A stretch of DNA of 64,000 nt, taken from the NCBI GenBank assembly GCA_963817525.1, contig CAWFOU010000001.1, positions 1,101,902-1,165,901 on the forward strand, given 5' to 3'. The stretch is from an uncultured archaeon. Lineage in GTDB: Archaea; Thermoproteota; Nitrososphaeria; Nitrososphaerales; Gagatemarchaeaceae. The first letter of the stretch is position 1, and each line of letters begins with the position of its first letter. Position numbers and translations under genes: made by a program. The notes beneath the pieces are model-generated. The model was not told where the DNA came from, did not search any database, and saw only the letters and a program-made list of their open reading frames with translations. This document shows positions 14,049 through 63,931 of the stretch, in pieces.

Positions 14049-15548
14049 CTAGCTTCTCACCTCTCGTTTCAGATAGGGGCGCACTTCGCCGCGGAGGCTG
14101 GTAGTTGATTCATTGAGCTTGTTCTCTTTCTCTTTGAGCCAATTGTGTAGTGTTTGTATGTCTTTCTTGTCCTGCACCATCTGTCGCGTCGTGAACTTTG
14201 GGTTCGCTCCGCCGGCGCTTCCGATAAGCGTCAGGGTTTTGAGTGCATCGAGAACCGCCCGGAGACGGGCCTTATCAATCTTTATCGCCCGGCCCGTGAT
14301 TTTCTTGGAGACACCTTCGAGAGACTGCTCGGCGGCCTGCTCGAGGCTCATGTCCTTCTCGAGCGCGACGCGCACGATCTCTCCCACTATCTGGTGCGCC
14401 TGGCGGAAGGGGACCCCGTGGGCGCGTACGAGCTCGTTGGCCAGCTCTGTCGCGGTGGACATGTCGCCCTTGAAGGCCTCCTTCAGCACGTCCGCTCTGA
14501 ACTTCGCGGTCGAGAGCATCCCCGCCATGTGGGAGACCGAGGACGTGGCGTCGTCGAGCGCGCGCCAAAGGTGCGGGGTCATCTCCTGGAGGTCGAGGTT
14601 GTAGGCGTTGGGCAGGCCCTTCGCGATGGTGAACGCCGCGGTCGCCTCGCCTATGACCGACCCTGACTTTGCGCGGATCGTCTCGGCGACGACCGGGTTC
14701 TTCTTCTGGGGCATTATGCTGCTCGTGGCTGAGTACTCGTCCCCGAGCTCGACGAAGCCGAACTCGGTCGAGCTCCACAGGATGAGCTCCTCAGCGATCT
14801 TGCTCAGGTCGACCATGAGGATCTCCAAGACCGCGAGGGTCTCCAGGAGGAAGCTCCGCGATGAGACAGCGAACATGGAGTTCTTGATGAGGCCGTCGAA
14901 CCCGAGAAGGGTCGCGACAGAGGCCCTGTCCACCTTTACCGAGGTCCCCACGAGGGCGGCGGCGCCCATGGGAGAGAGGTTCACGCGCCCGTAGAGCTGC
15001 TCGAGGCGCTCCGCGTCCTCGGAGAGGGCCTCGAAGTGCGACTGCATGTGGTGGGCGACCGTCGTCGGCTGGGCGCGCTGGAGGTGAGTGTACCCGGGGA
15101 GAGGCAGCTGGCCGTAGCGGGCCATTACCCGCACCAGCGAGGCCTGCAGGCCCTTCACCTCCCGCAGCATCCGGAGCACGCCGTCGCGGGTCTCCATGCG
15201 GAGTGCGGTCGCGACCTGGTCGTTCCTGCTCTTCCCCAGGTTGAGGTAGCCCGCGGCCTCCATCCCGATCGAGGCTATGGCCTCCTGCTCGAGCCAGTGG
15301 TGGACGTCCTCCGTCGAGGGGTCGACCTTCATGCGGCCAGGGAGGCGGTCGAGGAAGAGCAGGCAGGCGGCGCCCTCCTCCTTCCCCACCTCACCCGAGC
15401 GGACGAGGGAGAGCATGTGAGCCTTGTTGATCTCCACGACGTGCCGGCTCAGCGGGCCATCGAAGCCGACCGAGGAGGTGAAGGCGTTGGCCTTCTTGCT
15501 AGACCGCTTTACCCTGCTTCCTCTCAGTATGTTGCTCACGCTTTGCAC
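14049..15548 (-). CDS. argH: Argininosuccinate lyase
   Basis: GKSRNDQVAT, PGYTHLQRAQP and SSIMPQKKNP motifs. Confidence 0.95.
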   Translation of the reverse strand: MQSVSNILRGSRVKRSSKKANAFTSSVGFDGPLSRHVVEINKAHMLSLVRSGEVGKEEGAACLLFLDRLPGRMKVDPSTEDVHHWLEQEAIASIGMEAAGYLNLGKSRNDQVATALRMETRDGVLRMLREVKGLQASLVRVMARYGQLPLPGYTHLQRAQPTTVAHHMQSHFEALSEDAERLEQLYGRVNLSPMGAAALVGTSVKVDRASVATLLGFDGLIKNSMFAVSSRSFLLETLAVLEILMVDLSKIAEELILWSSTEFGFVELGDEYSATSSIMPQKKNPVVAETIRAKSGSVIGEATAAFTIAKGLPNAYNLDLQEMTPHLWRALDDATSSVSHMAGMLSTAKFRADVLKEAFKGDMSTATELANELVRAHGVPFRQAHQIVGEIVRVALEKDMSLEQAAEQSLEGVSKKITGRAIKIDKARLRAVLDALKTLTLIGSAGGANPKFTTRQMVQDKKDIQTLHNWLKEKENKLNESTTSLRGEVRPYLKREVRS

Positions 15549-47401: not shown

Positions 47402-48445
47402 CTAGAAGCGCGAGCGCTTGTGGCCAGGGAACACGCCCTCGACTCCGGTCAAGACCACGATCACCCTGACCCTTCCGTGCATGTCCTCCTCGACCCTAGC
47501 GCCCCAGACGATCTTCACTCCTGGTCGGAGAACTTTCGTTATCTCCTCGCCCGCGGCCACGACCTCCTCAAGAGTCACGTCCCCTCCCCCCGTTACATGC
47601 ACCAGAACTCCGTACGACTTTGACGCATCGCGCAGGTCTAGGAGTCTGCTGTCTATTGCCTTCTTCGCCGCCTTCTCGATTCTTCCCTTACCAGAAGATT
47701 CGCCTACGCCTATGGCGGCCAGCCCTCTCCGCTCCATTATCGCCTTCAGGTCTGAGTAGCCGATGTTGATGAGAGATGCCGTTGTCACTGTCTCAGTGAT
47801 GCCCTTCACGAATAGGCCGACCAGTTCGCTTGCTACTCCCAGCGCCTGCTCGAGCGGTAAATCCCCTGCGACCTTGGAGAGCCTGTTATTATCGATCGCG
47901 ACCACCGTGTCGCAGTACTCCCGAAGCTCCTCGAGGCCCTTCCTGGCTTTCTTGTACCTGTATCTCTCAAAAGAGAAGGGAAGCGTGACGACGCCGATTT
48001 TTAGGATGCCTTCTCCTGGGACCGCCTTCGCGAGAACGTTTATGGCTCCAGTGCCGGTCCCTCCCCCCAAACCCGCACAAAGGAGGAGTATGCTCGAGCC
48101 AACAACCGCCTTTCTCAGCTCGTCAAGACTTTCCTGGGCTGCCTTTTCACCCACATCAGGATAGCCACCGGCACCTTGACCGTGGGTGAGCTTCTCACCG
48201 ATGAGGATCCTTCTGTCGGCTCTCGTCACACTCAAGTGGACGGCATCCGTGTTTGCGGCAATGAGCGTGCCTCCAACCACGCCCTTCTCCTTCAACCAAG
48301 AAACGATGTTGCTGCCGGCCCCGCCCAAGCCTACGATGCATACCTTGGGGCGTGCGGCGAGCATAGAGGCTACTATCTTGTCGGCATCCGACTGATCGTT
48401 GGATGCTGAGTCTCCCCCCATGGCATTCAGCTTTTCGAGTGTCAT
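47402..48445 (-). CDS. ftsZ: Cell division GTPase FtsZ
   Basis: VGLGGAGSN, ANTD, GAGG, GLGGGTGTG, TLPFSFE and DNNRL motifs. Confidence 0.93.
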   Translation of the reverse strand: MTLEKLNAMGGDSASNDQSDADKIVASMLAARPKVCIVGLGGAGSNIVSWLKEKGVVGGTLIAANTDAVHLSVTRADRRILIGEKLTHGQGAGGYPDVGEKAAQESLDELRKAVVGSSILLLCAGLGGGTGTGAINVLAKAVPGEGILKIGVVTLPFSFERYRYKKARKGLEELREYCDTVVAIDNNRLSKVAGDLPLEQALGVASELVGLFVKGITETVTTASLINIGYSDLKAIMERRGLAAIGVGESSGKGRIEKAAKKAIDSRLLDLRDASKSYGVLVHVTGGGDVTLEEVVAAGEEITKVLRPGVKIVWGARVEEDMHGRVRVIVVLTGVEGVFPGHKRSRF

Positions 48446-53226: not shown

Positions 53227-54714
53227 TTACGGGCTTGAGACTTTTGAGTTATTCAGACTGACTTTGATTCCTCCAACTTGGGCCTCGGACGGAATTGTCT
53301 TTGCTCCGACTGCCTTCTCAAAATTGGTCAGCGCCTTTGGGTCGCCCTCTAGGATTTCCCTTTTCATTCTCGCATAGGCTGACTGGAACTCTTGGAAATA
53401 GTCAACGACATGAAATTCGATATTGTCACCAGCAATGACGATGCCCTTGTGTTTCTCCGTGGTTCCCCATAGGAAGACAGTCGATTCCTGTTTGATGAAA
53501 TATTGATGCGTCAGTCCGCCCCTGACCAACCCATAGATTCTCCCTGCATCCTTGTACCCCATGTGTTCGAGGAAAGTCTTGTGATTGTTGAATTTCCCAT
53601 CGCCTTTATCCTCGAATGCGCCGTTTAGTAGACCTCCGAGGATTTCGGAATAAACGGATAAGGCTAACGCTGCAGCGAAGTTTGCTTTTCCTTCTATGCA
53701 GGCCTTAATGTCGTTGAACATGAATTGTTCAACATATTTTTCGAGCCACTTCCTAGCCGCCTCTCTTCTCTGGCTGAGGTCTTCCATTCCCTTTTCCTCT
53801 GGGCGCGACAGGTTTTGTGCTTTTCCGAGAAGGCCGCTATCGCTTATCCGAAGGTAATCTGCAATCGTAACAGTCATAATTCCATCTGCTGCAACGACGA
53901 TTAGGAGAATGTTAGACCACCCAACCGAGGCCGAGTTCGGGAAGAACCAGCCGAGGGTACAGAATAGTCCAAATGATGTCAGAAACATCACGAGGACTCT
54001 CTTATGTCGCGGGACGAAGTCAAGACCGGCCAGACCGAAATCTAGCAGACTGGGCAGAACGTATTTCCAACTCCTCTCGAATGCGTAGTCCAAGGCGTTT
54101 TGCGCCTTGTCGCCACGTTCATTGACTAGCATCGGCGTTTGAAGCACTTCGCACGTCCTCTCAGCTCCGATTATGACCAGTGACAGCGCAAGCAGAGGCC
54201 AGACAAAAGCGAGGTAGGAGATTATCAATGGAAAAGTGTGAGCTACCAGCCATGCCTGTAGCAACAAAGAGGCAACGGTCACTATCACGGAGAAGAGAAG
54301 CGGAAAAATCCCCGAACCGACTAGGATCCTCATTGTGTTGCGATTCATATCCAGCGGATATGCGCGAACCAACTTGGCTGCGATATACCAGGCCGTCATC
54401 AAACCTACAATCGAAACGGGATATTCGGGGAAAGCTTGGTTGGTGTACTGCACAATCAGCAAGCCGAACATCGTGAAGTTTCCGACGACCAAGATTATCC
54501 AACCGCGGACTTTGTCCAGTGGAGAATTTCTGATGACTGCGCCCCTGACATATCCGACATAGAACGGCAGCGCGACTCCGGCTAAGAGGACTGGCAAGGC
54601 GACGATCAGAGAATCTAGATCGTTCCTACTGGTTTGGACGATAGTGAAAGCGAGGGTTGCGAGTGTAAGTATGAATAGAAACGCGTCGTCTAGTTTCTCA
54701 TGAATCAGCGGCAC
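53227..54714 (-). CDS. Multi-TM protein fused to a HEPN-like domain
   Basis: About 8 hydrophobic helices, then a helical domain with RGGLTH (Rx4H); possible internal start at ATG 53787. Confidence 0.65.
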   Translation of the reverse strand: MPLIHEKLDDAFLFILTLATLAFTIVQTSRNDLDSLIVALPVLLAGVALPFYVGYVRGAVIRNSPLDKVRGWIILVVGNFTMFGLLIVQYTNQAFPEYPVSIVGLMTAWYIAAKLVRAYPLDMNRNTMRILVGSGIFPLLFSVIVTVASLLLQAWLVAHTFPLIISYLAFVWPLLALSLVIIGAERTCEVLQTPMLVNERGDKAQNALDYAFERSWKYVLPSLLDFGLAGLDFVPRHKRVLVMFLTSFGLFCTLGWFFPNSASVGWSNILLIVVAADGIMTVTIADYLRISDSGLLGKAQNLSRPEEKGMEDLSQRREAARKWLEKYVEQFMFNDIKACIEGKANFAAALALSVYSEILGGLLNGAFEDKGDGKFNNHKTFLEHMGYKDAGRIYGLVRGGLTHQYFIKQESTVFLWGTTEKHKGIVIAGDNIEFHVVDYFQEFQSAYARMKREILEGDPKALTNFEKAVGAKTIPSEAQVGGIKVSLNNSKVSSP

Positions 54715-54723
54715 GAAGGGCTC

Positions 54724-55404
54724 CTACTCCTTTGCTCGCTCGCTGATGACTTTCACTGGTTTGCCACCAATCCATTCCTCTACCTTTATTGCGAGTTCTG
54801 AGATATCTTTGACCGAATAGTCAACGGCCAATTCTACGACCGCGTCCTCTCGTTTCTTCCTTTTCAATTCTTCAAACGGATAAGCGTCAATCCGTTCGAA
54901 AGTTCTGACCCCCCTTCTCCCCGTTCCGTAGATTGCGGCGCCCGAATTTATGTGCGAGAGCGAGATGTCACTTTGGTGCTTCTTCAGCAAGGCTTCGGTG
55001 TCGACCGTCAAGACTGTGTGGGCTCTGCCCTTGTATGCCCTTGCGTTCAGAAGCCTTTCGAGTCTTTCTCTCCGCACCCAAAAGAAAGTTTTACGATTGA
55101 GCAACTCGTAGTATTCTCCGGCTGACATTCCGTCGACGAGCTTCTGCAAAGTAGCTTCAGGCAATGGCTTTTGATCCCGAATGACGACTGACCCGTAATC
55201 AGGATGAGTAATGGTTACGCTCTTTGGTCTCCATTGTGATTCTATCTTGTATCGATCCCTCCCATTAATCTGAAACAGGTCAAGTAGCGCGGTGGTGCTT
55301 AACAGGCCATTTTCGCGGATGCTCGGCCAACTCCCCGCTTCGGCCATGTGGTAGACTCGTGGGTAGAATCTTACTAAATCATCCATCCTCATGCTGGTCA
55401 CCAC
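54724..55404 (-). CDS. DarT-like ADP-ribosyltransferase-fold protein
   Basis: VYHMAEAGSWPSIRENGLLS N-terminal motif, TFFW strand and late VELAV glutamate. Confidence 0.65.
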   Translation of the reverse strand: MVTSMRMDDLVRFYPRVYHMAEAGSWPSIRENGLLSTTALLDLFQINGRDRYKIESQWRPKSVTITHPDYGSVVIRDQKPLPEATLQKLVDGMSAGEYYELLNRKTFFWVRRERLERLLNARAYKGRAHTVLTVDTEALLKKHQSDISLSHINSGAAIYGTGRRGVRTFERIDAYPFEELKRKKREDAVVELAVDYSVKDISELAIKVEEWIGGKPVKVISERAKE

Positions 55405-56996
55405 TTACGCCGGTCGATTACACTGCGAAGGCTGAAGCCAGTGGAAATGAGAGACACCGGCGCGCCCGAGACACGCTCCACTTCTTCAATGAAATTGATC
55501 GTCTCCTTCGTGAGCTGGTCAAATCGCATCGCCTTTCGGTTGCTCTTTGACAGGTAGTCAGTAAAGGTAAGCGCTATGTCCGTAGGACCGTTTAGAAAAG
55601 TCGCCTTTCGCAGGAGAACCCAGTCGAACTCTCCGATGCGTCTCTTTCGGTCTGTGGTTGACGTTCGCTCGACTCTCTTCAATTCCTTCAATCCGATATG
55701 CGACCGCCTGCTGATTTCTTCTAATGAGATTTCAGCCCACATCGGTCCAGAAGTACCTTGCTGAGGGCTCTCGACCCTGATCGGATAAGTCCGACTTACA
55801 CTGATGACCTTTCTGACCCTTGACGGCGGGATTCCTGCCTCAGCGAGGCAGCCCGCGACAGTAGTGTCGCGAGAAGTAACGTATGGATAGTAGCCATGGT
55901 AGAGGCTGAGGCCCGTGCCTTGCGTGCCTTCAAGCAATACTCTTTGGTTCTTGGCATAGGCGTCGGTGAGGACGCTCTCAGCAGTCCTGATGAATGGCTT
56001 CAATTCCTTTATGTCTCTCGCCAGTTTCACGCCTCTCTTACCGCGGTCCGTAATCTTGCGTGCCGTCGCTTCTCCGACCCCTTGAGCCGTCGACGCGATC
56101 CGTTCCTTCACCCCTTCCTCTCGTCTGACGTCGTCTTCAGAAATTATCATGACCTGCGGGTCTATGCTCAACCGGTGCGCGTCGACTCGACATTCTCCGA
56201 TTTCTTTGAGTAGCTTTTCGACGTTTACAACCATGCCTGGAGCCAGAAGCAGACGAGCACGACTCCGCCGTGTACCCGAAGGCAGCTGATGGTGCGTGAA
56301 CGGGCCATCCTTCTCAGGCACCTTATGTCCGGCGTTTGGACCTCCAACTCTGACCAGCAAGTCGTACTCCCTCGATAGGTAAGCTACAACCTGGCCCTTC
56401 CCTTCGCTCCCAAATTCTCCTCCAACGATGACGTCAACAAAACCGCCTCCTCGTTCTCCGTAGAGTGATAGCTTGCCAGCGGCCCGGACTAGGACATCCT
56501 CAGGCCTGCAACGATTTGTATCTATTACGATATCAGCTATGTGCCTTAGCTCGTCGACATTGCGTTCGGTGAGGTTTTCTCTCACCTTCGAATAGGGTTG
56601 GGGAGTCCTCCCTTTCGTATGAGGTCGCCTGAGATACCTTCCTTCGAGGACACCTAGAGGGGCTGTGAGGTGCACATGAGTGACAGGCGAAAAAGCATCA
56701 CGTATCGCAGTAACCTGTTCCCTGATTCTAACTGCATCAACTACGAATATTGCATCTTGTTGTGACTCCCGAAAAGCTCGATCGAGTGCCTCGAGAACCC
56801 ATCGGCCTTTTGTCTCCCGGTCTAGCCGGTCGCCTTCTTCCTGCAATGGAAGGCGATTCCCGGTCGAGTCCTTGAGCTGCTGTTGCAGTATCTCTCTCGT
56901 CTTGATGATACGTGCGCCAAAATTCTTCCTTAGATTGTCCGCGAGCTCGGATTTTCCCGAAGAAACGGGACCAGAAAGTAGAATGAATCTGGGCGT
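55398..56996 (-). CDS. NMP-kinase-like P-loop domain fused to a PurA/PurZ-family synthetase (probable ACG start)
   Basis: LLSGPVSSGKS P-loop upstream of the ORF-track start; VGGEFGSEGKG, GGPNAGH, EGTQG..LS..HG.YPYVTSRD, RTYPIRV and TFTDY motifs. Confidence 0.85.
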   Translation of the reverse strand, partial: TPRFILLSGPVSSGKSELADNLRKNFGARIIKTREILQQQLKDSTGNRLPLQEEGDRLDRETKGRWVLEALDRAFRESQQDAIFVVDAVRIREQVTAIRDAFSPVTHVHLTAPLGVLEGRYLRRPHTKGRTPQPYSKVRENLTERNVDELRHIADIVIDTNRCRPEDVLVRAAGKLSLYGERGGGFVDVIVGGEFGSEGKGQVVAYLSREYDLLVRVGGPNAGHKVPEKDGPFTHHQLPSGTRRSRARLLLAPGMVVNVEKLLKEIGECRVDAHRLSIDPQVMIISEDDVRREEGVKERIASTAQGVGEATARKITDRGKRGVKLARDIKELKPFIRTAESVLTDAYAKNQRVLLEGTQGTGLSLYHGYYPYVTSRDTTVAGCLAEAGIPPSRVRKVISVSRTYPIRVESPQQGTSGPMWAEISLEEISRRSHIGLKELKRVERTSTTDRKRRIGEFDWVLLRKATFLNGPTDIALTFTDYLSKSNRKAMRFDQLTKETINFIEEVERVSGAPVSLISTGFSLRSVIDRRKW

Positions 56997-56999
56997 CCT

Positions 57000-58442
57000 C
57001 TATTCTCCCCGATTCCCAGATTGAGCAAAGCTTTCTAGCACCGAAGCATTCTGCTTTCTTCGCTCATCGTGGAGGGGGAGGTCGTAGACCGTGACCTCGA
57101 CTCCTTGGCTCACGAGCGTATCGTAGACGATTTCGCTAATCACGTCCCAGTTCCCTCCCGCTTGGCCGGCTCCGATGCGCGGCATGTGTACGGTAGCCCG
57201 ATTTGGCGAGGCAACTTGGAAGAGTTTTTCCAAGCAACCCCTTAGAGCGTTGTAACGAATTCGGGGCTTGGTGGAGGGGCCATAGCCGTGTTGAGCCACC
57301 ATGCTGTACACGCTGAGTGACTCAGAAGCTTTAGTGATGTGGGATTCTCCGAGCGAGAGGTTTGCTCCCTCATTAGCAACCCACGCTTGGAAATCTCGCT
57401 GGACTTCAGGCCACTTTCGTGCGACCGCGATGGCAAATCCAGCACCCCAGTTCGCCGTCTTATCATTCACGACGTGTGCGATGATTCTTGGACCTGTGAC
57501 TCGAGGTTCGGTTGCATCGCCGACAAGGTACATGATACGGTGCGTCTCGGGAACCTGCTTGGCCGCCGAACGGACCATTCCAACTACGCGAGGGTAGGTA
57601 TTGCCAGGATACGGAGCCACGCCTACGCACTCGACTTCGAGTTCCGGGAGGCCTGAAGTCCACTCCTCCTTTCTCTTTGCGGTATAGCCTATGGCAGTAC
57701 ACTCCGAAAGCACTGATTTCGCAGGCACTATGGTTCTTGCAGGTATGATTACAGAAGATGCTGATGAGCTCTCGGAATAGTCAATGCGATAGGGCGCGCC
57801 CTCTTCGTCACGTTCGCGGGCTGCTGCGAAAATTGTGATCGGTTGAGCAGTCAGTTTTGCGAGTCTCAACAAGATTGCTTCAACGGAGACGTCGAAGTTC
57901 TTTCTCTGGTTGAGAATCTCATCGATTGTGATGGGAGAAGCCAGAATTTGAGAGGCCGAGCTTACTGGCATCAGAATCTCAGCGGCTGAAAGGTTGCAAA
58001 GAAGTTCCAGTTGCCATTCGTCTCGTCGACGATGTGTGACAGTCGTTCGGTTCCTCGCCATTTCCGCACAATCAGGAAACAAAGTATGGGCGATTTCGTG
58101 TGCTATTGAGAACCTTGTACGACCGCGCGGCTGGGTTGGATTATACTCGATGCCGAGCTCTTTTGCCGAATCAGCAACAACGCGGGCATCCAAGACATCA
58201 TCCCTTGCCGTGACTCGAAGTTTCAAGTATTCCGCAAGCCAGAATGGATCGAATGGAGGCCCTTGCCAGCCATCGTCCATGGCCTTGAGCACAAGCTCGC
58301 GTGTTTTTGAAATGATGTGAGCCATCGGTTCAGAGCCTCCTGCTAGAAACAAGACCGAAGGATTAGTCCAGTTGATCTTGTTCGTACCGCGCAAGCCAAT
58401 TGAAGAATTGGCTTGATTTTGGGTAGACGTGATTCTCTTCAT
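57000..58442 (-). CDS. ImmA/IrrE-family HExxH metallopeptidase fused to a Macro domain
   Basis: RFSIAHEIAH...ELLCNLSAAEILMP; GDAT, IAHVVND, WGAGFA and MPRIGAGQAGG Macro motifs. Confidence 0.85.
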   Translation of the reverse strand: MKRITSTQNQANSSIGLRGTNKINWTNPSVLFLAGGSEPMAHIISKTRELVLKAMDDGWQGPPFDPFWLAEYLKLRVTARDDVLDARVVADSAKELGIEYNPTQPRGRTRFSIAHEIAHTLFPDCAEMARNRTTVTHRRRDEWQLELLCNLSAAEILMPVSSASQILASPITIDEILNQRKNFDVSVEAILLRLAKLTAQPITIFAAARERDEEGAPYRIDYSESSSASSVIIPARTIVPAKSVLSECTAIGYTAKRKEEWTSGLPELEVECVGVAPYPGNTYPRVVGMVRSAAKQVPETHRIMYLVGDATEPRVTGPRIIAHVVNDKTANWGAGFAIAVARKWPEVQRDFQAWVANEGANLSLGESHITKASESLSVYSMVAQHGYGPSTKPRIRYNALRGCLEKLFQVASPNRATVHMPRIGAGQAGGNWDVISEIVYDTLVSQGVEVTVYDLPLHDERRKQNASVLESFAQSGNRGE

Positions 58443-58768: not shown

Positions 58769-59008
58769 ATGGCTGTCGTTGCCGAGTTCAGGAAACGGGT
58801 TGGCGACATCAAGCCGCTCCTCGTGAGGATCGATGGGGTCGTGGGGGTCGCGCTCGGAGGGACCTCCGAAAACCCGCGAATCATCGTGATGGTCTCGAGG
58901 GACGATGACAAGGTGAGGGCAGGGATTGCCCATGTTGCGGGAGACCTTCCGCGCGAGATTGTCACCACGGGGGAGTTTAAAGCCCGTCAGACGATGACAC
59001 GTCGTTGA
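58769..59008 (+). CDS. Small protein resembling a protease pro-region
   Basis: LVRIDGVVGVALG...IIVMV...IVTTGEF; 4-nt overlap with the protease gene. Confidence 0.6.
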   Translation: MAVVAEFRKRVGDIKPLLVRIDGVVGVALGGTSENPRIIVMVSRDDDKVRAGIAHVAGDLPREIVTTGEFKARQTMTRR

Positions 59009-59946
59009 CGATATTTGAAGCAAAGCAGCAAGCCGTTTCCTATCTCTTCGGATCGGGTGGCTCGCGAGCCTTCGCCTATGAGACCCTGAATTCGTCCGCC
59101 ACTGGCGCTGTCAACGGGGTCGGGATCGAGTCAACCGACAAACTCGCCGTCTTCTTTCGCAGGCGGATTCCCGACCAAAAGGCCATCCTGCAACAGGTGG
59201 CTGACAACACCGGTTACGATACTCGCGCCGTCGTGACAGGAGAATTCAGCGCAGTGCCCCCGCTAGCGTCGGGATTACAGAACAGGCAAGGGTACGTCCA
59301 AAGACCTGTGCCGTGCGGGGTCAGCATCGGTCACTACCAGGTTACGGCAGGCACCCTAGGATGTATGGTGAGACACTCGAACGGGCGCAACTATATTCTA
59401 AGCAACAACCACGTCCTGGCGAATTCGAACTCTGCCAGTCAGGGCGACCCCATCTATCAGCCGGGGCCCTACGACGGAGGAAGTTCAGGTTCGACGATTG
59501 CCAATCTGTCTTCCTGGGTAGACCTTGTCGGAGGCACCAACCTGATCGACGCCGCTCTGGCGGAACCGCACGACAGTTATGTCGATCCTGAGATACTCGA
59601 CATCGGCCGGCTGAGCGGCATAAGCGATCCTGTATTGGATGGCCCTGTGAGAAAGAGCGGGAGAACCACAGGGTTGACCGCGGGGATTCTGCGGTTCACT
59701 GGAGCGTACCTTCAGGTAAACTACGGGAATCTCGGTAGCCTCCGCTTTGACGACCAAATAGTGATTGAATCCGCCGACGCCTCTGCGCCTTTCAGTTCCG
59801 GTGGCGATTCGGGAAGCATTGTAGTCGACGAGGCGAGCAACGCGACCGGGCTGCTCTTTGCAGGGAGCGATACCTTCTCTCTAGCGAACCCAATCCGGAC
59901 GGTCTTTGAACGCCTGAATCTGACGCACGTGCTTGTCCCTGCCTAG
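59005..59946 (+). CDS. Trypsin-like serine protease without signal peptide
   Basis: AGTLG, LSNNHVL (His), IDAAL (Asp), KSGRTTG and GDSGS (Ser). Confidence 0.88.
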   Translation: MTIFEAKQQAVSYLFGSGGSRAFAYETLNSSATGAVNGVGIESTDKLAVFFRRRIPDQKAILQQVADNTGYDTRAVVTGEFSAVPPLASGLQNRQGYVQRPVPCGVSIGHYQVTAGTLGCMVRHSNGRNYILSNNHVLANSNSASQGDPIYQPGPYDGGSSGSTIANLSSWVDLVGGTNLIDAALAEPHDSYVDPEILDIGRLSGISDPVLDGPVRKSGRTTGLTAGILRFTGAYLQVNYGNLGSLRFDDQIVIESADASAPFSSGGDSGSIVVDEASNATGLLFAGSDTFSLANPIRTVFERLNLTHVLVPA

Positions 59947-60099: not shown

Positions 60100-61533
60100 T
60101 TAACGCTTGTTTCGGGACGCTCTGTCAGCGCGGGCCTTCTCTGCTACCTCGTGCCTCGCCGTCAGCGTCATCCCAGCCCTATCTCCGAGTCCTGTCAGCG
60201 GGGGGAAAGCGCAGCCTAGTTCGCACGTCTTCGATGTGCTATTTAGAACTCCCGGCACCATACTGTACATCTGGGCACCTATGTTTGAAATCCCATGAGG
60301 CGCCACGACGATCGAGAGGATCTGCAAGAGTTCCATCGAAGCCACGCTAAGGTTGAAAGAGAAGACATTCTCGTTGTGGCGGAAAGGCTCGTCTTCTGGC
60401 AAGCCCGAGATATACTCGGGGTCGTCAAGGAGCCCATCTCGTTCGGCCGACACTAAGCCCGGGTCGTATTGCTCCAGACAGACCATGCACCTCCGCGCAG
60501 GACCTACAACGTGGGCGCCCCAGTAGGCCCTCTTCAAGGTGCCTTTCGGACTGACAATGACTCTGACACCACCGTCGACCACGGGAATCAGGTGGGCGTA
60601 CGCGATGAAATTCAATGCACTTCTCGGCCAAGGTCTGTCAACACAGCTGAACAGAATATCACAGTCCAAGGCAAGCTTGAACCCCTCAGGCTCGACTACG
60701 CTCCATTCCGATGCTATTACATCAAAACCATCCGCTGTGGCACTCTTCCTAAGCGCCCCAGATACAACCCGGACCTTGGGGCGGCTTCTGTCGGCATCTT
60801 GCTTGGTGGCGTGCAGCTGCCGGTCCAAGTTCACGGACTCAACAGAGTCGAAATCAATGAGAGTAATTTCCTTCAGACCCATTCGCGCCAGAGCCTCCGC
60901 GACGATTCCTCCGACCCCACCCAGACCGATTATGCCTAAACGAAGCCTTGCCAGCTTGGCCTGCGCGACCTCGCCCCACGCTGAAACGGTCCGAGTCAAC
61001 TCAGGCTTGGATCTCGGAGCAGGCAGGAGCTCAGGGTTGAATGACACGTTCAACGAAGATCCAATCACTCGGACTTTTTCACAGGGAACGGACTCGTACC
61101 TGCGCTTTCCAGTCCTAACCCAGGCACGCGAACTCCACATTTCGTCCCCGCTCAAGGTCATGCCGAGCAACGGGAGCCCGGTTCCGCCTTGGGTGGTGTG
61201 AGCGAATGTGTTCTCCGAATTGGCGTCGTCCTCGCTGGACGCCTGCCAGCCGGATCCTGATGGGTGACTGTGCATAATTGCGATGCCCATCTTCCTCTTC
61301 AGGGCCATGCCCAATACGCGGACGAAGTAGTGAGTTGCAACATGGACATTGCCGCGAACGATTCTCTCTCCCTCCTCGGGGAGGACGATCTCAGTGACAA
61401 GACCAGTGAATCTTCGGCTCCCCTGGCTTGGCATGTAGAGACCAAAGCACGCGTCCTCTTGTCCGTCGCCCCTGAGCAGATGAGAGACCGCTCTCTCGTT
61501 CGTTCCAATTGCCATCGCAACGCTGTAGTTCAT
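60100..61533 (-). CDS. JAB/MPN peptidase fused to an E1/ThiF activating enzyme
   Basis: QEDACF plus MHSHP..S..D (JAB); GLGGVG, DFDSVESVNLDR, CVD and CMVC (E1); ATG overlaps the E2 stop. Confidence 0.88.
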   Translation of the reverse strand: MNYSVAMAIGTNERAVSHLLRGDGQEDACFGLYMPSQGSRRFTGLVTEIVLPEEGERIVRGNVHVATHYFVRVLGMALKRKMGIAIMHSHPSGSGWQASSEDDANSENTFAHTTQGGTGLPLLGMTLSGDEMWSSRAWVRTGKRRYESVPCEKVRVIGSSLNVSFNPELLPAPRSKPELTRTVSAWGEVAQAKLARLRLGIIGLGGVGGIVAEALARMGLKEITLIDFDSVESVNLDRQLHATKQDADRSRPKVRVVSGALRKSATADGFDVIASEWSVVEPEGFKLALDCDILFSCVDRPWPRSALNFIAYAHLIPVVDGGVRVIVSPKGTLKRAYWGAHVVGPARRCMVCLEQYDPGLVSAERDGLLDDPEYISGLPEDEPFRHNENVFSFNLSVASMELLQILSIVVAPHGISNIGAQMYSMVPGVLNSTSKTCELGCAFPPLTGLGDRAGMTLTARHEVAEKARADRASRNKR

Positions 61534-61901
61534 ACGTCCGCGAACAACCTCCGGATGTATCCCAGGTAAGCCCTGACTGTCCTGTCGGTCGAGTTCCATC
61601 CCGGGAACGGGCGGCTCCAGTACTCCCAAGAAGGGCCCAGCTGGTCGCTCGGGTGGACTGCGCCATGAGGATGCGGGAGGTCGTTCGAAGTGTGCATTGG
61701 AAGCAGTCGGGGGCTGACGTGCGGCCCTCCAGGCGGGTTTAGGGGGAAGTCTTCTCCGACTGCAAACGCCAACTTGATTTTCTCACCTCTCTTGCTCCCG
61801 ATGGGTATTTCGTAGTCAAACACCACGAACCCTTGGGGCGTGACCGAGTCCAACCGATATCCAAGGTTCTTCAATTGCTCAATGAAGTCAGCCCTTGACA
61901 T
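61530..61901 (-). CDS. Prokaryotic E2-like protein lacking cysteine
   Basis: DFPLNPPGGPHVSP and WEYWSR motifs; lies between the Ubl and E1 genes. Confidence 0.75.
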   Translation of the reverse strand: MSRADFIEQLKNLGYRLDSVTPQGFVVFDYEIPIGSKRGEKIKLAFAVGEDFPLNPPGGPHVSPRLLPMHTSNDLPHPHGAVHPSDQLGPSWEYWSRPFPGWNSTDRTVRAYLGYIRRLFADV

Positions 61902-62189: not shown

Positions 62190-62763
62190 GAGATTGCGCT
62201 AATGGTGCAAGGCCCACATTGATTTATCTTTCGGCGTGACATCCTCCGCAGAGGCTTCGCGACGGATTGGCCGTATCATGCCATTGGCAAAGAAGGCTAC
62301 AGACAAACAATTACGAAAGGATTGAGGTACGCGGAAACCACAGAATCCGAGTCTAGCCCGCCGGTTCGGCGTCGCAGCCGCTGCGCAGGTAGAGATGCGG
62401 AAATCGGGCAAAAAATACACAAGGAGAGGGCATCTACAGAAACCGGTCCAAAAAAAGGAGAGGGGTGGATATGAATAATATCCGCATTCATGTGAGGGCT
62501 CCAGGATGGCTCTTCGCCTTCCTGCTGATGCGGAGGGGTGGGCACGGCTCGTTATTAGCCTAGCGACTCGACCGGGGTAGCAGCTCGCCACGCTCCGCTT
62601 TTACCGCATGCATTCGATAAGCGCTCCACCTATGGTGGGCGTATTCTGACGATTCAACGGAAGCGGAGCATGCCACACTCAACGGGCAAAGCTCTCGGAG
62701 CTTGCGCTCCGCGCTCAGCGGATATAGAGTGGTCAGGCGTGCTGCCCTGTCCCGACTGTCGCG

Positions 62764-63910
62764 CTAGGCTACGCCGCCACCTCCTCTCTCGAGGCCTTCG
62801 AGCTTCTTGTTCGTGAGCGCTTCGTTCTCCCACCTCCAGTGCTCCCTCGTCTTCAGGACGTGGTAGGTCATCCGGAGCAGCTTCTTCATCGCGAGGACGT
62901 GGGCTCGCTTGCCGCTCTTTGTCCTCTCCTTCTGGTGGACGTAGTACCGGTGGAGGTGGGGGTTCCAGTGCATGACCGTGTCGGTCATGATCCCGAGGGT
63001 CCACCTGGCTATCGACGGGCCGTCCTTGGACATCCTGCCTCTCCTCTTCACGTTCGCGCTGTCGCGCGTCTCCGGTATGATCCCGAAGAAGCTCGCCAGG
63101 TGGTCGACCGTCGGGAAGCGGTTGACATCCCTGACGTACGAGGAGAAGAGCGCAGCGAGATAGTAGTCCACCCCGGGGATCGTCATGAGGAGCTTCACGT
63201 CCTCGTTGTCCTTTACGAGCGCCTTGGTCCTCTCCTCGAGCGGAGCGCATCTCTCCTCGTAGAACGCGATCTTCTCCATCATCGTCTTCAGGACGAGGTC
63301 CCTGTCGTCGCCGAACCTGATCGACCTGATCGCCTCCCTCCTCGCGGCGCTGAAGTTGTTGTTCGCCTTCGGGAGCGTCGCGTAGACGTCCTCTCTCTTG
63401 AGGTAGCTGATCGCCGAGCTCTTCGTCCTCGCGATCTCCACGCCGAGCTTCACCCGCTGAATCAGGAGGTCCCCTCAGGATCTGTTCCTCCCTCGTGAGG
63501 AGGTGCGACTCTGGCAGCATGTCCATGAAGAGTAGCCTCGCGATCTTCTCGGAGTCTGCCCTGTCGTTCTTCTTCTTGGACCTCACGATGAGCGCGAGCT
63601 CCTTCGGGTGGGCGACCGTGATGTTCTGATATCCCATCGCCCGCAGCCTCCTGTTGACGGGATAGGCCATCGTGCTCGCCTCGTACCCGATCCTCGCGTC
63701 CTTCGGTATCCTGCTGGAGAAGAGGGCGTAGCCCGCGTCGTCCATGGAGAAGTTGAACCTCTCCGATATCTCGCCCAGGACGGAGTACATCGTCGCGACG
63801 CTGAACTCTTCGCCCAGGTCCAGTCCTACGGCAGGTGTCCTCGGAACGCTCAGTTGGCTCATTGCCCTTCGAGCTGTCCTCGTGTCGTTTTTCTCTTTCT
63901 TCGTTGTCAT
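62764..63910 (-). pseudogene. IS110-family transposase with a 1-nt frameshift
   Basis: VGLDLG, EAS and KNDRADS (DEDD RuvC) in one frame; LMTIPGV, LASFFGIIP..RDSA and SKDG in another; extra base in the C run at 63471-63474. Confidence 0.88.
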
Positions 63911-63931
63911 TCTCTTCACCCTGACGCAGTA

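Follow-up and report, generated by a model that had tools for sequence, protein, structure and literature searches.

What is an adenylosuccinate synthetase (PurA) fold, with serine in place of its catalytic aspartate, doing in the genome of a cellular archaeon? To our knowledge, PurZ and PurZ0 have been described only from phages, where they initiate the synthesis of 2-aminoadenine (Z) DNA. The question is raised by a gene in a 64,000-nucleotide stretch of DNA (the window, positions 1,101,902 to 1,165,901 of contig CAWFOU010000001.1 in assembly GCA_963817525.1) from an uncultured archaeon of the Gagatemarchaeaceae (Thermoproteota, Nitrososphaeria, Nitrososphaerales). As judged from its sequence, the gene codes for a bifunctional enzyme, a P-loop nucleotide kinase joined to a short, Ser-type, PurZ-like ligase fold, and it is the middle member of a three-gene cassette that looks like an undescribed microbial conflict system. 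The reading developed here, to which we give about an even chance, is that a GTP- and aspartate-dependent, PurZ0-like guanine-nucleotide ligase and its kinase have been exapted into a mobile conflict cassette controlled by ADP-ribosylation.

The fusion protein and its relation to PurA, PurZ and PurZ0

All of the motifs quoted in the initial annotation (SGPVSSGKS, VVDAVR, HVHLTA, GGEFGSEGKG, GGPNAGH, TTDRKRR and TFTDY) lie in one minus-strand frame, and the translation of this frame matches the Pfam families Adenylsucc_synt (PF00709, E 3.9e-61) and, over the extra N-terminal kinase-like domain that had been proposed (residues 1-183), AAA_18 (E 6.1e-9). Full-length homologues have about 533 amino acids (aa) and are about 60% identical. 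The AlphaFold 2 (AF2) model of the protein has a predicted local distance difference test (pLDDT) score of 80.4 and a predicted template modelling (pTM) score of 0.81, with low confidence at the active-site loops, residues 408-421 among them, as would be expected of an unliganded PurA fold.

The Asp-to-Ser switch that first drew attention to the protein is a family trait and no private substitution, since Ser198 does not vary across the 27 aligned homologues; serine is likewise found in 88 of 88 kinase-fused loci (79 genomic, 9 viral). Invariant or nearly so in the same 27 homologues are K201, the NAGH motif (N222 and H225), S303/T304, Q360, T375, V409, T448/T449, R453/R454 and D481. We take these residues, by mapping onto E. 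coli PurA, to bind aspartate and the 5'-phosphate of the nucleotide, to catalyse phosphoryl transfer and to specify the guanine of GTP. Because these catalytic and binding residues are kept, the family appears to be an active ligase that depends on GTP and aspartate and acts on a nucleoside 5'-monophosphate.

Of the 8000 candidates scored in a word-indexed protein search, 5561 reached E<=0.001, and the best 120 of these were mostly about 530 aa long (with a few shorter gene calls), about 58-65% identical, and mostly composed of kinase Pfam domains together with PF00709. The exhaustive search with the ligase domain gave 8896 representatives at E<=0.001. Among the best 150 of these the P-loop pattern was found in 126, with Ser in 118, Gly in 4, Asp in 3 and Asn in 1; the other 24, in which the pattern was not found, are mostly fragments. 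The best 150 include both kinase-fused proteins (about 500-560 aa) and stand-alone ones (about 340-370 aa). Two library representatives have unusual architectures, P0128 with two tandem kinase domains ahead of the Ser-type ligase and P0239 with a stand-alone Ser-type ligase followed by a C-terminal dCTP-deaminase/dUTPase-like (DCD) domain.

By the curated NCBIfam models the fusion protein is neither PurA nor PurZ, because it falls below the cut-offs of both. The best model, NF003295 for short archaeal PurA, gives 297.7 bits against a cut-off of 368, with TIGR00184 at 215.6 against 395.55 and NF002223 at 179.3 against 402. The best solved relative of the ligase domain is Pyrococcus horikoshii PurA (5k7x/2d7u, E 5.6e-59, residues 190-531), and phiVC8 PurZ (6fko) matches at E 2.1e-35; the corresponding P-loops read GSEGKG in the window, GDEGKG in P. 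horikoshii PurA and GSTGKG in phiVC8 PurZ. The protein thus shares with canonical short archaeal PurA (NF003295; 2D7U/5K7X) its best structure match, its length class, the GTP-type Asp and an Arg of the R303 type, but differs in the GSEGKG loop, the score below cut-off, the extra loop residues, the fused kinase and a place outside the canonical clade. At 30 of 30 loci sampled in the phylum, the canonical short PurA reads GDEGKG.

The gene is also not the cell's PurA, because a canonical long-type purA (PF00709 E 2.9e-132, P-loop GDEGKG, G000:C1:962655-963851) and a purB (369 bits against a cut-off of 326, about 470 kb from the fusion gene) stand elsewhere on the same contig; the separate purA that the initial annotation had asked to be looked for is therefore present. 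Short PurA above the NF003295 cut-off was found in 62 of 81 sampled genomes of the phylum, including 10 of 10 of the same order, and the window's genome is the only one of the 81 with a 533-aa match below that cut-off. The housekeeping purA of this genome is a long, bacterial-type enzyme, and its same-order relatives have the short archaeal type. Within the window, a 540-aa lyase-family (PurB/ArgH/fumarase-like) frame at about 14331-15260 (-), 40 kb from the fusion gene, reaches 62.8 bits with the purB model, well under the cut-off, and is probably unrelated.

Phylogenetic placement was derived from a maximum-likelihood tree of 107 rows, composed of 20 of 42 kinase-fused and all 66 stand-alone representatives, 4 PurZ0-type phage proteins, 3 PurZ, the Bacillus phage protein BpsS140, 12 of the 30 canonical short PurAs of the phylum and the genome's own long PurA as outgroup. 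The Ser- and Gly-type proteins form a superclade of 91 rows (support 100/96), with 13 canonical short PurA rows outside it. Inside the superclade, the window protein falls in a kinase-fused clade of 29 rows (93/97), and the PurZ0 clade (100/100) and the clade of PurZ plus BpsS140 (100/98) both belong to a separate 21-row group (88/91); quick trees give the same groupings. On this evidence the kinase-fused lineage is a third lineage of the Ser-type superclade, beside PurZ and PurZ0, and the window protein stands outside canonical short archaeal PurA in the trees as it does by model score. According to the accessible text of a 2026 paper, four archaeal sequences with Ser or Gly are basal to PurZ0 and PurZ (PMC12884076).

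The sequence features agree in part with the PurZ0-type assignment of the initial annotation. The Ser switch, the G[NT]SG loop and the GTP-type Asp481 uphold it, but the protein belongs to a clade of its own outside PurZ0 and PurZ, and the Arg in TTDRKRR, which had been offered as a sign of PurZ0, is in fact the canonical-PurA state (equivalent to E. coli R303), for which PurZ0 and PurZ substitute Lys or another residue. In every Ser-type protein, those of the PurZ0 and PurZ types among them, the conserved Arg-Val is followed by at least 2 additional residues ('G[NT]SG'), and the insertion is longer in the window's clade (ESPQQGTSGP). For S-2L PurZ, the accessible text of PMC8342488 links an insertion in this loop to 2'-deoxy selectivity, the loop pulling Val toward C2' of dGMP, places Ser23 beside the 2-amino group, and describes Gln/Asn at the guanine-specifying position of PurZ (Q308/N297) as giving ATP use. 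Taken together, these features make a guanine nucleotide the likely substrate of the window's clade.

Compared with actinophage PurZ0 (e.g., Gordonia phage Archimedes, PDB 7VF6), the likeness comprises the short PurA fold, Ser for Asp13, GSE[GA]KG in both, the 'G[NT]SG' insertion, Asp at the guanine-specifying position and membership in the same superclade. The differences are the separate clade, a domain identity of about 31-35%, the N-terminal kinase, and an Arg in the T-x-[KR] loop, where Lys stands in PurZ0; further, the window fusion sits in a cellular genome within a cassette of ADP-ribosyltransferase (ART) and macrodomain genes, whereas PurZ0 sits in a replication module. ATP-dependent PurZ (phiVC8 6FKO/6FM1, S-2L 7ODX; NF038379) shares the Ser switch, the loop insertion and the superclade, but has GSTGKG plus Asn/Gln where the window's clade has GSEGKG plus the invariant Asp481. 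The initial annotation had seen no purB, datZ, mazZ or polymerase gene nearby, and this fits a Pfam scan of the twelve larger open reading frames (ORFs) in 42-64 kb and of the operon genes. Among the window ORFs scanned there is also no DpoZ gene near the fusion, no dutZ/dmtZ or other Z-pathway gene and no replication module; such genes occur only beside basal phage members of the fusion family.

For the kinase domain, a profile of 25 such domains searched against the Protein Data Bank (PDB) had its best match, near full length, in the Sulfolobus SSO1041/UPF0200 'AdkA-like' structures (3lw7/3h0k, E 1.5e-9), with adenylate kinases as the next best. The NCBIfam model of the anti-phage dCTP deaminase (NF041025) was matched at E<=0.1 by 19 of the 25 domains (best 7.9e-6), and the PADLOC dCTPase match has E 5.8e-4. 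Both proteins combine an N-terminal P-loop kinase with a domain that modifies a nucleotide base, but the catalytic domain here is a PurA-type ligase and not a deaminase, and the likeness is weak and of the generic kinase fold only, RapZ and UPF0200 scoring equally.

The three-gene cassette and its partner proteins

In cellular genomes the fusion gene nearly always has the same two neighbours. It is preceded by a gene for an M78 metallopeptidase with a C-terminal macrodomain (M78-macro) and followed by a gene for a DUF7002 protein, all on the same strand and with overlaps or gaps of a few bases. Hidden Markov models built from the window's neighbours found DUF7002 at 77 of 79 genomic fusion loci and M78-macro at 73, with both at 71, and the two loci lacking DUF7002 are cut by contig ends. 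The flanks of the cassette are unrelated between loci. In one of the 79 loci, from a Bryobacterales metagenome-assembled genome (L048:5992-8265), the fusion and DUF7002 form a single 757-aa frame (...IIDRRKW-S-MPDTT...), which may be a natural fusion or may reflect the loss of a stop codon.

The M78-macro gene matches Pfam Peptidase_M78 (E 3.8e-10) and the PADLOC models capP (2e-21) and DarG (9.6e-5); in its protein the HEIAH site is intact and the macrodomain motifs are invariant. Its profile matches bacterial macrodomains in the PDB (2afc/2fg1/5e3b) at E 1e-46 to 1e-49, ALC1 at 5e-20 and TARG1/OARD1 at about 4e-12, and the N-terminal part matches IrrE (1.2e-10) and CapP (4.2e-8). On its upstream side the M78 gene has no conserved HTH/CapH-like (helix-turn-helix) partner, and a sigma-70-like gene stands there in only 6 loci.

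The DUF7002 protein matches its Pfam family at 2e-65, and its AF2 model (pLDDT 94.5, pTM 0.90) has its best structural match in E. coli DarT1 (8baq; Z 10.8, root-mean-square deviation 3.1 A, 161 residues). Other DarT structures follow at Z 8.4-9.7 (7omu 9.7, 7yk3 8.9), Tpt1/KptA at Z 7.4-8.6 over about 95 residues, and Foldseek gives E 4.4e-4 for the model against DarT. From the model, DUF7002 is a DarT1-like ADP-ribosyltransferase fold. Sequence profiles give no such match, the comparison with solved structures reaching DarT1 8baq only at E 0.23 over the first 36 residues, and the Pfam search at E<=0.02 returning DUF7002 only, with no DarT model. Motif II reads F-F-W in place of the Y of the H-Y-E triad, and H19 and E191 are invariant, in agreement with PMC12522546.

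That paper (BMC Genomics 2025), in the portion accessible, describes an ART-like family, 'Lmac_3114', with Hxx, FFW and xxE motifs, a distant relationship to DarT/Tpt1, a distribution reported in bacteria only, and an AdSS domain encoded close by in 60% of cases, in some of them together with an 'AAA' domain (PMC12522546). The three motifs are those of DUF7002 and the AdSS neighbour is shared, so that, on the motifs, the two are very probably the same ART family with the same association. The accessible portion makes no mention of the Asp-to-Ser switch, a relation to PurZ/PurZ0, the M78-macro partner, archaeal members or phage relatives. It is the sole paper found that touches the fusion-ART association, in a search that did not extend to supplements or most subscription papers, and literature searches on DUF7002, on PurA-like proteins with a macro domain and on PurZ in toxin-antitoxin systems found no publication.

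Among described systems, DarTG (DarT1-NADAR and DarT2-DarG macro) offers the closest parallel that we draw for the partners, in that a DarT-fold ART is encoded with a macrodomain of the TARG1-related class in a mobile, defence-island context. The cassette differs from DarTG in the FFW of DUF7002 motif II versus Y-x-x, in the missing Pfam DarT match, in a macrodomain fused to an M78 peptidase versus the DarG C-terminal domain, and in an obligatory third, nucleotide-modifying enzyme.

The fusion family has at least 580 species matches, in Nitrososphaerota, Thermoplasmata, Chloroflexota, Acidobacteriota, Planctomycetota, Verrucomicrobiota, Gemmatimonadota, Actinomycetota, Pseudomonadota and others. 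Within the window's phylum it is rare, DUF7002 scoring above cut-off in 2 of 201 sampled genomes. Because it is conserved across bacteria and archaea, the cassette is no archaeal peculiarity. Matches to PADLOC models at E<=1e-10 were found for 30 of 145 flanking ORFs, in 27 of the 79 loci (147 immediate flanking ORFs, two dropped for size), and include restriction-modification types I, II, IIG and IV, a CBASS 2TM effector, AbiU, JetA, QatA, BilD, IetA-like and PD-T4-6. In the window itself GC content falls from about 0.63 to 0.51-0.58 over the island that holds the cassette. The initial annotation had proposed a non-replicative role in a cellular archaeal island; a non-housekeeping role stands, and it is best read as one in a conflict system, but the setting is not confined to archaea, and the cassette, its distribution and its phage relatives had been missed.

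A fourth gene of about 240-330 aa, without a Pfam match, accompanies the cassette in 14 loci from Dehalococcoidia and Thermoplasmata (L006, L007, L010, L012, L014, L017, L019, L020, L022, L023, L042, L055, L061 and L064). Three of these (L010, L012 and L014) are without M78-macro, and in them the fourth gene and DUF7002 are divergently placed.

Phage relatives and what the cassette may do

Of 80 IMG/VR loci with relatives of the ligase domain, 11 carry the full fusion and 69 have stand-alone Ser-type domains. The whole cassette is present in only 2 of the 11 viral fusion loci and DUF7002 alone in 1 more; the remaining viral fusion genes adjoin genes for PolA, DnaB, primase, DEAD helicase, dNMP kinase and 5'-nucleotidase. 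In two contigs the neighbour is a fusion of an NDT-like part (phrog_355, DUF1937/DUF4406) with a MazG-like part (phrog_715), at L121:1624-2409 and L129:2677-3381. This recalls the DmtZ/DutZ of PurZ0 phages, as far as these are described in the accessible text of PMC12884076, and the genes appear to make up a Z-type nucleotide set, so far unreported, that includes a kinase-fused PurZ. The L121 fusion gene, a basal viral member, matches phrog_1211 ('2-aminooxy adenylosuccinate synthetase') at 5e-70. In a further viral contig a von Willebrand factor A (vWA)-domain gene stands directly upstream of the kinase-PurZ-like gene (L128:3169-4923).

The phage context of these basal members matches a deoxynucleotide (Z-type) pathway. 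In a quick tree of 92 rows the phage versions branch first and those from the cellular cassettes make up a derived clade of 82 rows (SH-aLRT, the Shimodaira-Hasegawa approximate likelihood ratio test, 95), an order that, with weak rooting, suggests that a cellular cassette captured a phage deoxynucleotide enzyme.

A way in which the cassette might act can be proposed, its chemistry from the conserved residues and its biology from the gene context. GTP would phosphorylate O6 of a guanine nucleoside 5'-monophosphate and aspartate would displace the phosphate, giving an N6-succino-2-aminoadenine nucleotide as with phage PurZ0; of the two candidate substrates, dGMP is judged somewhat likelier than GMP. 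The kinase domain would phosphorylate either a precursor of the ligase substrate or the ligase product. The cassette, by its context, would be a conflict module of the anti-phage/abortive or addiction type, whose triggered enzyme diverts or poisons the guanine/2-aminoadenine nucleotide pool. DUF7002 would write an ADP-ribose mark and the macrodomain erase it, the two forming a toxin/antidote pair that acts on nucleic acid or else an on/off switch, and the IrrE/CapP-like peptidase would be the trigger-sensing part. The mark may be placed on DNA (DarTG-like), on the enzyme (a DraT/DraG-like switch) or on the nucleotide product (a signal or toxin). Should the chemistry be PurZ-like, cells would be able to make Z-type or succino-purine nucleotides, the cassette would be a candidate for a new defence or addiction mechanism linking nucleotide-pool rewriting to reversible ADP-ribosylation, and the family would provide a concrete case of PurZ-fold traffic between phage and host.

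Several points weigh against this reading. The window protein lies outside the phage PurZ and PurZ0 clades in the 107-row tree, for which bootstraps (LG+G4 model) were not fully settled, and it scores 200.4 bits with the PurZ model NF038379 against a cut-off of 300. The rooting of the 92-row quick tree depends on four long-branched stand-alone outgroup rows. R303 of E. coli PurA contacts the ribose 2'-OH, and its equivalent is kept here, unlike in PurZ0/PurZ, so that the ribonucleotide GMP, or even IMP, is a possible substrate. A scan of the cassette genes with PADLOC-DB 2.0 gave no system-level match, none for DUF7002 and only a weak kinase match for the fusion, and the 30 defence matches among the 145 flanking ORFs were counted without a matched control set. 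The known antidote of DarT1 is NADAR and not a macrodomain, and the cooperation of the three cassette enzymes is conjecture. Finally, the window's own copy has no canonical start codon (see below), and its kinase P-loop may be untranslated or the gene poorly expressed.

A bolder version of the same idea, which we offer tentatively and do not expect to hold in full, is that cells in numerous phyla, bacterial and archaeal alike, captured the phage PurZ-type enzyme as an immune weapon. Upon infection the fusion enzyme would swamp the cell with Z or succino-Z (deoxy)nucleotides, the DarT1-like ART would mark the 2-amino-purines in replicating DNA or the nucleotide itself, and the M78-macro protein would sense infection and reverse the mark. 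If true, cells would have their first known Z-type nucleotide pathway, and the cassette would define a new class of defence system, one in which base substitution is joined to ADP-ribosylation.

The partner proteins could also be read as a small-molecule pathway, possible in our judgement though not probable, in which DUF7002 would ADP-ribosylate the succino-2-aminoadenine nucleotide on its succinyl carboxylate or a phosphate to give a dinucleotide-like signal or toxin, the macrodomain would hydrolyse or sense the conjugate, and M78 would be the output. The strict co-occurrence of the three genes and the in-frame joining of ligase and DUF7002 in one locus both fit such a pathway. So does the class of the macrodomain, nearest SCO6735, ALC1 and TARG1, members of which cleave ADP-ribose esters of carboxylates, and macrodomains sense ADP-ribose conjugates in type II Thoeris. 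DUF7002 further resembles Tpt1/KptA, and Tpt1/KptA ADP-ribosylates phosphate monoesters. However, the best fold match is to DNA-modifying DarT (153-162 aligned residues) and not to Tpt1, 6 of the 79 loci are without M78-macro yet have the other two genes, and we know of no ART that uses a free nucleotide as acceptor in such a pathway.

Doubtful, and in our estimate unlikely, is a switch on the enzyme itself, with the fusion enzyme as a toxic effector that depletes or converts guanine nucleotides and is gated by reversible ADP-ribosylation in the manner of DraT/DraG and nitrogenase, DUF7002 writing the mark and the macrodomain removing it. The operon does hold a writer, an eraser and a plausible target, one locus joins target and writer, the macrodomain class is related to enzymes that remove ADP-ribose from proteins, and the architecture of kinase plus base-modifier parallels the nucleotide-depleting anti-phage dCTP deaminase. 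The latter reportedly depletes dCTP (Tal et al. 2022). Against this, DUF7002 is nearest to ARTs that act on nucleic acid, and the H/FFW/E motif set is uninformative on a protein acceptor.

It is very unlikely that the gene is the leftover of an integrated or degraded virus that made 2-aminoadenine (Z) DNA, with neighbours that are unrelated cargo. The basal relatives in phage replication modules (PolA, DnaB, primase, NDT/MazG-like genes), the phrog_1211 match of one of them and the low-GC island with its IS110-type transposase gene would suit such an origin, but the ORFs scanned in 42-64 kb include no polymerase, helicase, capsid, DatZ, MazZ or NDT gene, 71 of 79 cellular loci have these same three genes amid unrelated flanks, and the cellular versions form the derived clade of the quick tree. 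An ordinary or back-up PurA, i.e., an additional adenylosuccinate synthetase that serves AMP synthesis or salvage and carries an accessory kinase, is hardly credible, since the P. horikoshii PurA match, the retained R303-equivalent Arg and GTP-type Asp, and the lack in this genome of the short PurA found throughout the sampled order are set against the loss of the catalytic Asp in every member, scores below the equivalog cut-offs, the canonical long-type purA, the company of ART and macrodomain genes in mobile, defence-rich contexts and a rare, patchy distribution.

Start codon, coordinates and neighbouring genes

The initial annotation gave the gene as 55398..56996, but the open frame begins at 56999, and it has no ATG, GTG or TTG ahead of Walker A. 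The first canonical start in the frame is the TTG at 56846, the use of which would remove the P-loop. By pattern, 65 of the 79 loci could be scored for their start (14 had no pattern match), and in 44 of these 65 a canonical start (ATG/GTG/TTG) lies exactly 4 codons ahead of the first strand. The window copy has AGG at this position and is the sole locus among the 65 without any canonical start. AGG is unchanged, with no other letter there, in contigs of three public runs from two studies, so that it is a genuine codon and no assembly slip; the check used public-run contigs, one of the three stops 7 nt past the AGG, and two further runs cover the stretch only piecewise. One nearby difference among the public contigs, C>T at 56946, is synonymous. 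Translation of the fusion must involve a non-canonical start, re-initiation, or the TTG at 56846 with loss of the kinase P-loop. The coordinates of the cassette and its motifs are collected in Table 1.

Table 1. Genes, domains and motifs of the cassette, in window positions
Feature	Position	Strand	Basis or remark
Upstream gene, 480 aa: M78 (IrrE/CapP-like) metallopeptidase, middle domain of unassigned kind, C-terminal macrodomain	57000..58442	(-)	
HEIAH site of M78	58086-58100	(-)	
VVND of macrodomain	57459-57473		
PRIGAG of macrodomain	57165-57182		
Gene junction: TAG stop (57000-57002) of upstream gene, then AGG at the start position of homologues	56997..57002	(-)	
Kinase-PurZ-like fusion gene, 533 codons + stop	55398..56999	(-)	First codon after upstream stop; translation, Pfam
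Predicted N-terminal P-loop nucleotide-kinase domain, residues 1-183	56451..56999	(-)	Pfam AAA_18, profile vs PDB
Walker A GPVSSGKS (in SGPVSSGKS) of kinase domain	56949-56972	(-)	
VVDAVR motif of kinase domain	56727-56744	(-)	
HVHLTA motif of kinase domain	56661-56678	(-)	
Short (archaeal-type) adenylosuccinate-synthetase-fold domain, Ser type, residues 186-533	55401..56444	(-)	NCBIfam, PDB profile, trees
Phosphate-binding loop GGEFGSEGKG	56394..56423	(-)	Ser198 codon at 56406-56408
GGPNAGH motif of ligase domain	56325-56345	(-)	
Loop RVESPQQGTSGP after conserved Arg-Val, 'GTSG' core	55743..55778	(-)	Alignment; longer than canonical 'RVG-xGPF'
Aspartate/ribose loop TTDRKRR	55638..55658	(-)	Alignment; T448, T449, R453, R454 invariant
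TFTDY, Asp481 at guanine-specifying Asp position of PurA [ST]KLD motif	55554..55568	(-)	Alignment
Downstream gene, 226 aa: DUF7002, predicted DarT-like ADP-ribosyltransferase fold	54724..55404	(-)	Overlaps fusion gene by 7 nt
DUF7002 invariant H19 (YHMA)	55342-55353		
DUF7002 invariant F107-F108-W109 (FFW)	55075-55086		
DUF7002 invariant E191 (VELAV)	54823-54837		

Directly downstream of DUF7002 and on the same strand lies a 495-aa gene (53227-54714, (-)) whose product combines predicted membrane spans with a soluble C-terminal part. Pfam, NCBIfam and PADLOC all gave no match, and the gene is absent from the other 78 loci; as its only record among the 79 is the window's own, it was rejected as a member of the cassette, and it may be a lineage-specific add-on. 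The trypsin-like/Nal1_C protease gene on the other side (59005-59946, (+)) was rejected on the same count (1 of 79 loci, the window's own record). The island further holds genes for a ThiF-type E1-like protein (60100-61629, (-)), an IS110-type transposase-like protein (62654-63919, (-)) and a member of the FtsZ/tubulin family (47402-48445, (-)). Genes of the ThiF/JAB type recur near the cassette in a few other loci.

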